NCBI GenBank assembly: GCA_028717605.1
Contig: JAQUNM010000001.1
Coordinates: forward strand, 1-29,377
Source: Minisyncoccota bacterium
GTDB taxonomy: Bacteria; Patescibacteriota; Minisyncoccia; Minisyncoccales; GWA2-38-27
DNA length: 29,377 nucleotides
Direction: 5' to 3'
Below, in pieces: positions 323-1,327 of the stretch. The notes under the pieces are model-generated. The model saw only the letters and a program-made list of their open reading frames with translations. It had not been told where the DNA came from and did not search any database. Both the position numbers and the translations under genes were made by a program. Position 1 is the stretch's first letter. The number at the start of each line of letters is the position of its first letter.

Positions 323-354
323 AAAAGAAAAAACCTTAGATTTTCTCTAAGGTT
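323..354 (-). terminator. Intrinsic terminator of the minus-strand unit
   Basis: Perfect 9-bp stem AACCTTAGA(332-340)/TCTAAGGTT(346-354), 5-nt loop, followed on the minus strand by TTTTCTTTT. Confidence 0.7.
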
Positions 355-355
355 A

Positions 356-434
356 TGGACCCCCTTCCCACTGACTAAGTAGTTTGTCAGCTGTTAAATT
401 TCAACACCGAAAATAAGTTTCGGGGGAAGGGGGT
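356..434 (-). ncRNA. Putative tRNA-like cloverleaf (4-way junction) RNA of unknown family
   Basis: 359-369 ACCCCCTTCCC pairs perfectly with 424-434 GGGAAGGGGGT. Three internal hairpins (371-390, 392-406, 407-423). The minus strand ends ...GGGGG-T-CCA (358-356). No TTCRA T-loop or canonical anticodon loop, so not a standard tRNA. Confidence 0.5.
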
Positions 435-444
435 TATTTTAAAA

Positions 445-657
445 TTAATTTTCTATATTTACAGATATTACTTTATAATCATGATATCTTTCGAGATGCG
501 ATCTTACGGTTTTGTCTGTAAGACCATCAGAAGGCATAATTGCCCTACCAAGTTCAACTAAAGCATCACTCATTTTCTTTGTTTCTGTCAAAACTCCTAC
601 TTGTTTTGGTTCTCCGTTTTCTTTGCCAGAAACCATAAATATCCATTTATAATACAT
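445..657 (-). CDS. Hypothetical protein, 70 aa
   Basis: ORF with AGGAGGT SD (667-661) overlapping the upstream TAG stop. No recognisable motif. Confidence 0.75.
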   Translation of the reverse strand: MYYKWIFMVSGKENGEPKQVGVLTETKKMSDALVELGRAIMPSDGLTDKTVRSHLERYHDYKVISVNIEN

Positions 658-665
658 TTTACCTC

Positions 666-911
666 CTAGTTAAGGTTAATTACATATATTAGTAACGCTG
701 TTGTATCTAATATATAAGGTAACATTAATTCCCTTAAAAGAAGTTCTCTTTGGTCTGTTATATCTTGAGAAAATGGATTACAGGGTATTTTTCTGTCTAC
801 TATTCTTTGAGCTTCAAAAAAAACATGCATTAATTTCAGGGCTTTTTCGTGTTCTTTTTCTTTTAAGAATTCTTGAAATTTTTCATAATAAAGATCCGCA
901 GTTCTTTTCAT
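666..911 (-). CDS. Hypothetical protein, 81 aa, helical
   Basis: ORF with GGGAGG SD (921-916), downstream of a consensus promoter. No recognisable motif. Confidence 0.75.
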   Translation of the reverse strand: MKRTADLYYEKFQEFLKEKEHEKALKLMHVFFEAQRIVDRKIPCNPFSQDITDQRELLLRELMLPYILDTTALLIYVINLN

Positions 912-954: not shown

Positions 955-983
955 ATTATAATCTTTAAAATAAATTTTGTCAA
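955..983 (-). promoter_or_regulatory. Perfect-consensus sigma70 promoter
   Basis: Minus strand TTGACA (983-978), 17 nt, TATAAT (960-955). Confidence 0.85.
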
Positions 984-1060: not shown

Positions 1061-1327
1061 ATGAAAAAAATATTGTGTCATGATTGTAAAAAAGTAATTG
1101 AGCTAAAAGAAGAAGAAATTAAGGACGGATTTAGGGTTGTATATAAAAAAGATGGAAAAGTAATTACTATTTTTAAGTGTAAGAATTGTTTTTCAAAAAA
1201 TAAAGCTTTAAATAATTTTCAAGATTGTGAGGTTTATTCTCGAGTAGTTGGTTATTTAAGGCCAGTTAAGCAATGGAACCAAGGAAAACAAAAAGAATTT
1301 AAGCAAAGAAAAGAATACAAAATATGA
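1061..1327 (+). CDS. Stand-alone class III ribonucleotide reductase (NrdD) C-terminal domain: Zn ribbon plus glycyl-radical loop
   Basis: CHDC...CKNC followed by YSRVVGYLRPVKQWNQGKQKEF, the NrdD RxxGY glycyl-radical signature. Only 88 aa, no catalytic barrel. Confidence 0.85.
   Translation: MKKILCHDCKKVIELKEEEIKDGFRVVYKKDGKVITIFKCKNCFSKNKALNNFQDCEVYSRVVGYLRPVKQWNQGKQKEFKQRKEYKI

Follow-up and report, generated by a model that had tools for sequence, protein, structure and literature searches.

A 76-nt element at positions 359-434 of the DNA analysed here folds, when read on the minus strand, into a perfectly paired four-way junction. It stands at the 3' end of a two-gene cassette, ranks among the most stable structures of its genome, and is neither a tRNA nor a member of any known family that could be tested. 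The explanation we prefer, and hold tentatively, is that the element is transcribed as part of the 3' UTR, where its structure would define or protect the end of the mRNA, or bind a protein. "The window" below refers to the whole stretch of 29,377 nt, which is contig 1 of a genome of 534,777 bp in 65 contigs (29.3% G+C), rated 97.9% complete and derived from landfill metagenome assemblies. The features of the region are listed here in the order of minus-strand transcription.

955-983, minus strand: sigma-70-type consensus promoter, TTGACA-17 nt-TATAAT, 12 of 12 matches; the first hexamer is at 983 and the second ends at 955
666-911, minus strand: ORF81, an orphan helical protein with a GGGAGG ribosome-binding site
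445-657, minus strand: ORF70, an orphan protein of beta-beta-alpha-alpha-beta type, with an AGGAGG site that overlaps the stop of ORF81
359-434, minus strand: four-way junction of 76 nt, an 11-bp closing stem (359-369/424-434) around three hairpins, predicted with RNAfold
407-423, minus strand: arm 1, the first on the minus-strand RNA; 6-bp stem (407-412/418-423), loop CUUAU (5 nt)
392-406, minus strand: arm 2; 6-bp stem including one G-U pair, loop AAU (3 nt)
370-391, minus strand: arm 3; 6-bp stem including one G-U pair, 10-nt loop AAACUACUUA
356-358, minus strand: CCA, directly after U359, the single base that follows or closes the stem
332-354, minus strand: intrinsic terminator of the cassette, with a 9-bp stem and then a T run, separated from the CCA by 1 nt
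296-312, no single strand: second hairpin, a two-way terminator flanked by an A run and, opposite it, a T run

Fold and stability of the element

Inspection of the sequence and folding with RNAfold agree with the initial annotation in finding a four-way junction with a perfect closing stem and three arms. The closing stem has 11 perfect pairs, consisting of ten G-C-rich pairs and A359-T434. The minus-strand RNA contains 27 Watson-Crick and two G-U pairs, every helix is perfect, and there are zero unpaired bases at the junction. Arm 2 has an alternative form, a 4-bp stem with the 7-nt loop GAAAUUU, in which AAAUUU is self-complementary. The same annotation had described the element as a GC-rich island in AT-rich DNA; the enrichment is real but modest, at 42% G+C in an 80-nt window versus 29% for the genome.

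The minimum free energy is -36.3 kcal/mol on both strands, with z scores of -5.5 (minus) and -4.6 (plus). None of 200 shuffled sequences matched the stability of the element, and the centroid structure is identical to the minimum free energy structure. On the plus strand arm 2 is reduced to 4 bp (392-395/403-406), to which the minus strand adds one G-U and one A-U pair, and arm 3 has 5 bp (371-375/386-390). The plus-strand fold thus lacks three pairs of the minus strand, both G-U pairs and an A-U pair that depends on one of them, and has one extra G-U pair at the base of the stem. Because the two strands fold equally well, energy does not separate a reading of the element as RNA from a reading as DNA. 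The two G-U pairs that extend arms 2 and 3 on the minus strand only speak for the RNA reading, but the plus strand has equal energy and a G-U pair of its own, so the choice of strand is a matter of context only.

To place these values in the setting of the genome, stability was ranked for 87-nt windows over the whole genome on both strands. The element is 4th of 36,516 windows, and the other top-ranked windows are tRNA genes. Among windows whose closing stem has 7 bp or more and encloses three or more branches, the element was the sole non-tRNA window below -26 kcal/mol. The other very stable non-tRNA windows in the genome are simple long-stem terminators or coding sequence; the other strong 3' structures are simple hairpins, whereas the element is branched. 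All three inner helices are perfect and the interior is filled completely, an arrangement that chance does not give and that a plain hairpin would not need.

On the minus strand the pentamer ACUUA is present in the hairpin loops of arm 1 (413-419) and arm 3 (376-380). Together with the AAAUUU of arm 2, these loops could be candidate protein-binding or kissing motifs, or a coincidence of A+U-rich loops.

The cassette and its transcription

Several lines of evidence place the element in genuine sequence. Positions 1-687 show zero differences from an independent contig assembled from a second landfill sample, indicating that the sequence is not an assembly artefact. Pieces of the cassette are identical in three further landfill runs. 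Reads from all four other runs were without variants, and therefore offer no natural covariation to exploit.

The stop codon of ORF70 occupies 445-447 and the junction begins 10-11 nt downstream on the minus strand. This placement, with the closing stem followed by U and CCA (358-356) and the terminator stem starting at 354, is as the initial annotation gave it. A scan for promoters and terminators found no terminator between ORF70 and the junction, so the junction should be made as the 3' tail of the mRNA, and we infer firmly that it lies inside the minus-strand transcription unit. The 176-nt tail folds as the junction plus two hairpins (z = -8.4). The second of these hairpins, at 296-312, is common to the cassette and to a convergent plus-strand gene that ends at 269. 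Six-mer Shine-Dalgarno sites are found at no more than about 36 ORFs in the genome, ORF81 and ORF70 among them; such strong sites fit a unit built for high expression.

In both genomes of the same genus the neighbouring block is conserved (a small NrdD-like gene, a short-chain dehydrogenase and rubrerythrin). The cassette is missing from both, and other genes stand in its place. The cassette therefore sits at a break in synteny and is replaced in the same-genus genomes, which indicates a species-specific accessory unit.

The two proteins of the cassette are probably real, since AF2 produced confident models of both from single sequences without alignments. The ORF70 model has a beta-beta-alpha-alpha-beta fold (pLDDT 83, pTM 0.69) and the ORF81 model has four helices (pLDDT 77). 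Among 5.8 billion proteins ORF81 matched only itself, and so did ORF70 when spurious matches to repetitive proteins are set aside; no true relative of ORF70 was present among 1.84 billion representatives. Neither protein has relatives in viral contigs or belongs to a Pfam, PHROG, PADLOC or NCBIfam family. Fold searches gave no convincing match for ORF81 and only weak matches, to small alpha/beta folds, for ORF70. An early fold-search hint that ORF70 might be a GIY-YIG protein was not borne out. The marks of a type II or III toxin-antitoxin cassette with an RNA partner were not found either: no toxin or antitoxin family was matched in these collections and there are no tandem RNA repeats. The fold searches were not telling on this point.

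Comparison with tRNAs and other RNA families

The initial annotation held that the cloverleaf is not a tRNA and named a match to a known Rfam family as one result that would overturn its reading of the element. ARAGORN detected nothing in the element at its default setting or at the relaxed settings (-ps60 and -ps80); the default run returns the two real tRNAs of the window and nothing else. No Rfam family was found at the element at the gathering score. At E values up to 10, searched over positions 200-700, the best overlapping matches scored 14.7-19.2 bits against thresholds of 90-100, and none was to tRNA. These searches reject a tRNA or a degenerate tRNA and leave the annotation's view standing.

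The loop sequences lead to the same result. The T-loop (UUCRANY), the GG of the D-loop and the 7-nt anticodon loop with U33, which had been reported as missing, are indeed absent; the loops are CUUAU, AAU or GAAAUUU, and the 10-nt loop of arm 3. One tRNA-like feature is present on the minus strand, where U359 in the position of a discriminator base is followed by CCA (358-356), and this may be chance. The initial annotation had allowed that the CCA alone could be fortuitous; from base composition we estimate the chance of a CCA at about 0.8% per position and about 5% over three offsets and two strands. There are 36 tRNA genes in the genome, of which about 4-5, counted by eye, encode CCA; genes for Ala, Ser and Ile are among them.

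The element shares with canonical tRNA (RF00005) a size of 76-78 nt, a four-way topology, a single base and CCA after the closing stem, and a placement before a terminator. Its closing stem, however, is 11 bp rather than 7, its arms are 6 bp, and its loops are 5, 3 and 10 nt. A tRNA has unpaired bases at positions 8, 9 and 26, whereas the element is without unpaired junction bases. The 7-bp acceptor and 5-bp T stem of a tRNA form a stack of 12 bp, and the corresponding stack in the element would be 11 + 6 = 17 bp. The likeness of the element to tRNA is one of outline only.

Other RNA classes were compared in the same way. The mascRNA of MALAT1 is a tRNA-like 3'-end module that is cut from a longer transcript (PMC8457004). 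Modules of this type, and bacterial RNase P substrates other than tRNA, resemble the element in that a longer transcript ends in a fold of cloverleaf-like shape with a CCA-type end. They differ from it in retaining a 12-bp stack and the T and D features of a tRNA, which the element is without. A divergent copy of a universal RNA was rejected: the genome has its tmRNA and its bacterial RNase P RNA (contig 15:8860-9203) elsewhere, and the element is not found in 38 genomes of the family. The SRP model gave no match to the element, though SRP RNA was not found in the genome. A self-cleaving ribozyme was rejected as well, since all helices are perfect and leave no internal loop to form a ribozyme core.

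Search for relatives of the element

The element is single-copy, with no paralogue in the genome. BLAST against 38 genomes of the family returned chance matches only, the best of them falling within a long open reading frame. A covariance model derived from the element sequence alone found nothing in the 38 family genomes or in a 150-genome sample of the phylum. In a 150-genome sample of the order it found one weak match of 26 bits (genome G063, contig 4:29942-30011; L162:1501-1570). This match consists of two adjacent A+U-rich hairpins between two plus-strand genes, and one of the hairpins has a T run after it on the opposite strand, in the manner of an intrinsic terminator. It resembles arms 1 and 3, including a loop CAAACUA, but is without arm 2 and without a real G+C-rich closing stem. 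About 0.1 such matches are expected over the genomes searched, and the match was therefore judged to be chance and rejected as a relative. The gene downstream of these hairpins appears by eye to be of ribonucleotide-reductase type, judging from its N-terminal sequence.

Pattern scans for the interior of the element found none in metagenome or viral collections, and BLAST against phages and plasmids returned A+T-rich noise only. The motif pair of the closing stem, CCCCCTTCCC and GGGAAGGGGG spaced 45-70 nt apart, had more than 119 matches in the genome contig collection. These were rejected as relatives of the element: they are in G+C-rich genomes, where composition predicts such matches, and their interiors are unrelated. 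The pair was observed in G+C-rich Chloroflexota, Planctomycetota, cyanobacteria and Clostridia (loci L027-L106), often several times per genome. These loci sit within palindromic repeats of purine and pyrimidine tracts that are unrelated to the element.

Possible functions of the element

The initial annotation had put forward three possibilities: a tRNA mimic cut from the 3' end of the mRNA, an RNA that partners the two proteins or acts as their antitoxin, and a structured DNA site. In kind, the nearest known counterparts of the element are 3' structures that stabilise or terminate transcripts; in outline, they are 3' modules resembling tRNA. According to the explanation that we prefer, the cassette would be a species-specific, self-contained operon made up of the promoter, ORF81, ORF70, the junction and two terminators. 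Minus-strand transcription of this operon would make the 76-nt junction as RNA between the ORF70 stop and a weak, A+U-rich terminator hairpin. After termination, 3'-to-5' exonucleases would remove the weak hairpin and stall at the G+C-rich junction, which would act as a very stable 3' cap. The stall would set the mature 3' end close to U-CCA and would stabilise an mRNA that is short and strongly expressed. The exposed loops of the three arms, with ACUUA in two of them, may in addition form a platform for protein binding.

We infer the transcription of the junction, its protective or processing role and any binding of protein, whereas its fold, exceptional stability, placement and uniqueness, and the finding that it is no tRNA, are direct results. 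Only 3 of the 9 pairs in the A+U-rich terminator stem at 332-354 are G-C, so that the junction is by far the stronger barrier. A simple hairpin would nonetheless protect a 3' end equally well, and the proposal of a 3' cap leaves the four-way shape unexplained. Long simple hairpins are what other genes of this genome have, which also speaks against the proposal.

The element shares several properties with intrinsic terminators and with stem-loops that stabilise 3'-UTRs. Its stem is G+C-rich and stands where an operon ends, within a convergent intergenic region; on the plus strand a run of U comes after the stem, and two ordinary terminators adjoin the element. In a rather unlikely alternative, the element is a nested palindrome at the DNA level, in this convergent region, and serves mainly as a back-up terminator for the plus strand. 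Plus-strand read-through would be halted before it became antisense to ORF70, while minus-strand transcripts would pass the element and stop at the next two hairpins. The equal folding of the two strands favours this alternative, as does the location of the element between two convergent genes, whose ends are at 269 and 445. So does the plus-strand sequence, where an 11-12-bp G+C-rich stem is followed by UUAUUUU (6 U in 7), and each direction of transcription would then have two terminators. The plus-strand gene, however, already has a good terminator at 296-312. The form of the element is also far from the usual one: the stem encloses three hairpins in a branched "loop" of 54 nt, and the terminator scan made no call there. 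T-rich runs are common in DNA of 29% G+C, where we estimate that 5 T in 8 occurs about 1 time in 6, and the upkeep of three perfect inner hairpins would be unexplained. On the minus strand, the one that is clearly transcribed, the U run of an intrinsic terminator does not follow the stem; the tail there is UCCAUAAC.

The outline of the element also raises an improbable alternative, that it mimics the acceptor end of a tRNA. RNase P would cut at the 5' side of the closing stem, and trimming would expose the encoded U-CCA, releasing a stable small RNA of 78 nt in the manner of mascRNA from MALAT1. Such an RNA might serve, for example, as a decoy or antitoxin for the orphan proteins. Bacterial RNase P cuts some non-tRNA helices with a 3' RCCA, among them 4.5S RNA, tmRNA and the C4 RNA of phages P1 and P7. 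The genome has RNase P RNA and encodes a CCA-adding-type nucleotidyltransferase, and the element occupies the position of a tRNA gene between an ORF and a terminator. The stem followed by one base and CCA points in the same direction, a CCA being unlikely in DNA of this composition, as estimated above for all offsets and both strands. Against this stand the missing T-loop, D-loop GG and U33 and the absence of a tRNA score at relaxed settings. The stack of 17 bp in place of 12 bp, with no junction bases to allow an L shape, also argues against it, as does the encoding of CCA in a minority of the tRNA genes. No homologue was found that would show conservation of the CCA, and the two proteins match no toxin or antitoxin family. 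It is highly improbable that the element is a stand-alone small RNA, released by RNase P with its encoded CCA, that works with the two orphan proteins as a minimal acceptor-end mimic devoid of other tRNA features; it might then, for instance, be the decoy or antitoxin of an enzyme whose substrates are the 3' ends of tRNAs. If true, this would make the cassette of proteins and RNA one of a new kind, in a bacterium of ultra-small size.

Mobile and repeated elements provide a further comparison. Like REP/BIME and MITE-like repeats and integron attC sites, the element is a nested palindrome that closes a small gene cassette on its 3' side and has a short flanking direct repeat. We consider it quite improbable that the element is the footprint of a miniature mobile insertion, a palindrome of 75-77 bp placed between the ORF70 stop and the terminator with duplication of the target GGTTAT. 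This 6-nt direct repeat, at 351-356 and 432-437, flanks the element and would occur by chance about 3% of the time by our estimate. Excision of the element with one repeat would leave roughly 14 nt between stop and terminator, a normal arrangement, and the cassette stands at a synteny break and is absent from the same-genus genomes. REP/BIME and MITE-like repeats are multi-copy, however, whereas the element has a single copy and no family: the covariance model found no other copy in about 340 related genomes, and there was none in the metagenome and viral pattern scans or the phage and plasmid collections. The GGTTAT repeat overlaps the stem, the inverted termini do not start at the repeat, and no transposase is nearby. 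An integron attC site was rejected, because GTTATGG and GTTATTT do not fit GTTRRRY, there are no RYYYAAC/GTTRRRY core sites, and all stems are perfect with no extrahelical bases.

The probability that is left falls to an element that has no assignable function or is a coincidence.

If the preferred explanation or another role as a working RNA is correct, a genome of 535 kb retains a lineage-specific structured RNA that is tied to two proteins without relatives. Structural study would then be worthwhile too, the element being a compact four-way junction with perfect pairing. At present it is one instance without relatives, and its value is mainly that of a well-defined candidate.

Other features of the genome

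No SRP RNA (RF00169, RF01854), Ffh M domain (PF02978) or SRP54-type GTPase (PF00448) was found in this 97.9%-complete genome. RF00169 had no match in 39 genomes of the family. PF00448 matched only P-loop fragments in 121 genomes of the order, and nothing in 81 genomes of the phylum at E <= 1e-10. DTAGR, TKxDG and related motifs were absent from the six frames of the genome. As a positive control, SecY was present (E = 2.5e-105), and the control genomes were all positive. Either the lineage is without Ffh, FtsY and SRP RNA, or these are too divergent to detect. The literature searched contained no statement on SRP loss in the lineage.

Contig 42:1715-1790 carries a tRNA-Ile with anticodon UAU, as called by ARAGORN; this is a rare type in bacteria. 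The tRNA-Ile(GAU) and tRNA-Ala(UGC) genes were not found in the assembly. These two are often located within rRNA operons that remain unassembled.

The small NrdD-like gene next to the cassette is a stand-alone gene of 88 aa (1061-1327, plus strand) that holds only the C-terminal Zn-ribbon/glycyl-radical part of NrdD (Pfam NRDD 521-562). Both same-genus genomes (60-67% identity) and about ten others of the family keep it as a separate gene. Some of these genomes, this one included (contig 10), have a full-length NrdD of about 700 aa alongside it. In the two same-genus genomes examined, the small gene is followed by the same dehydrogenase and rubrerythrin genes.

Most of the non-tRNA windows at the top of the stability ranking are long terminator-like hairpins. 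Unusually long and perfect examples, with stems of 13-18 bp, were observed at contigs 3:17024-17110, 60:668-754, 65:291-377 and 51:1306-1392.
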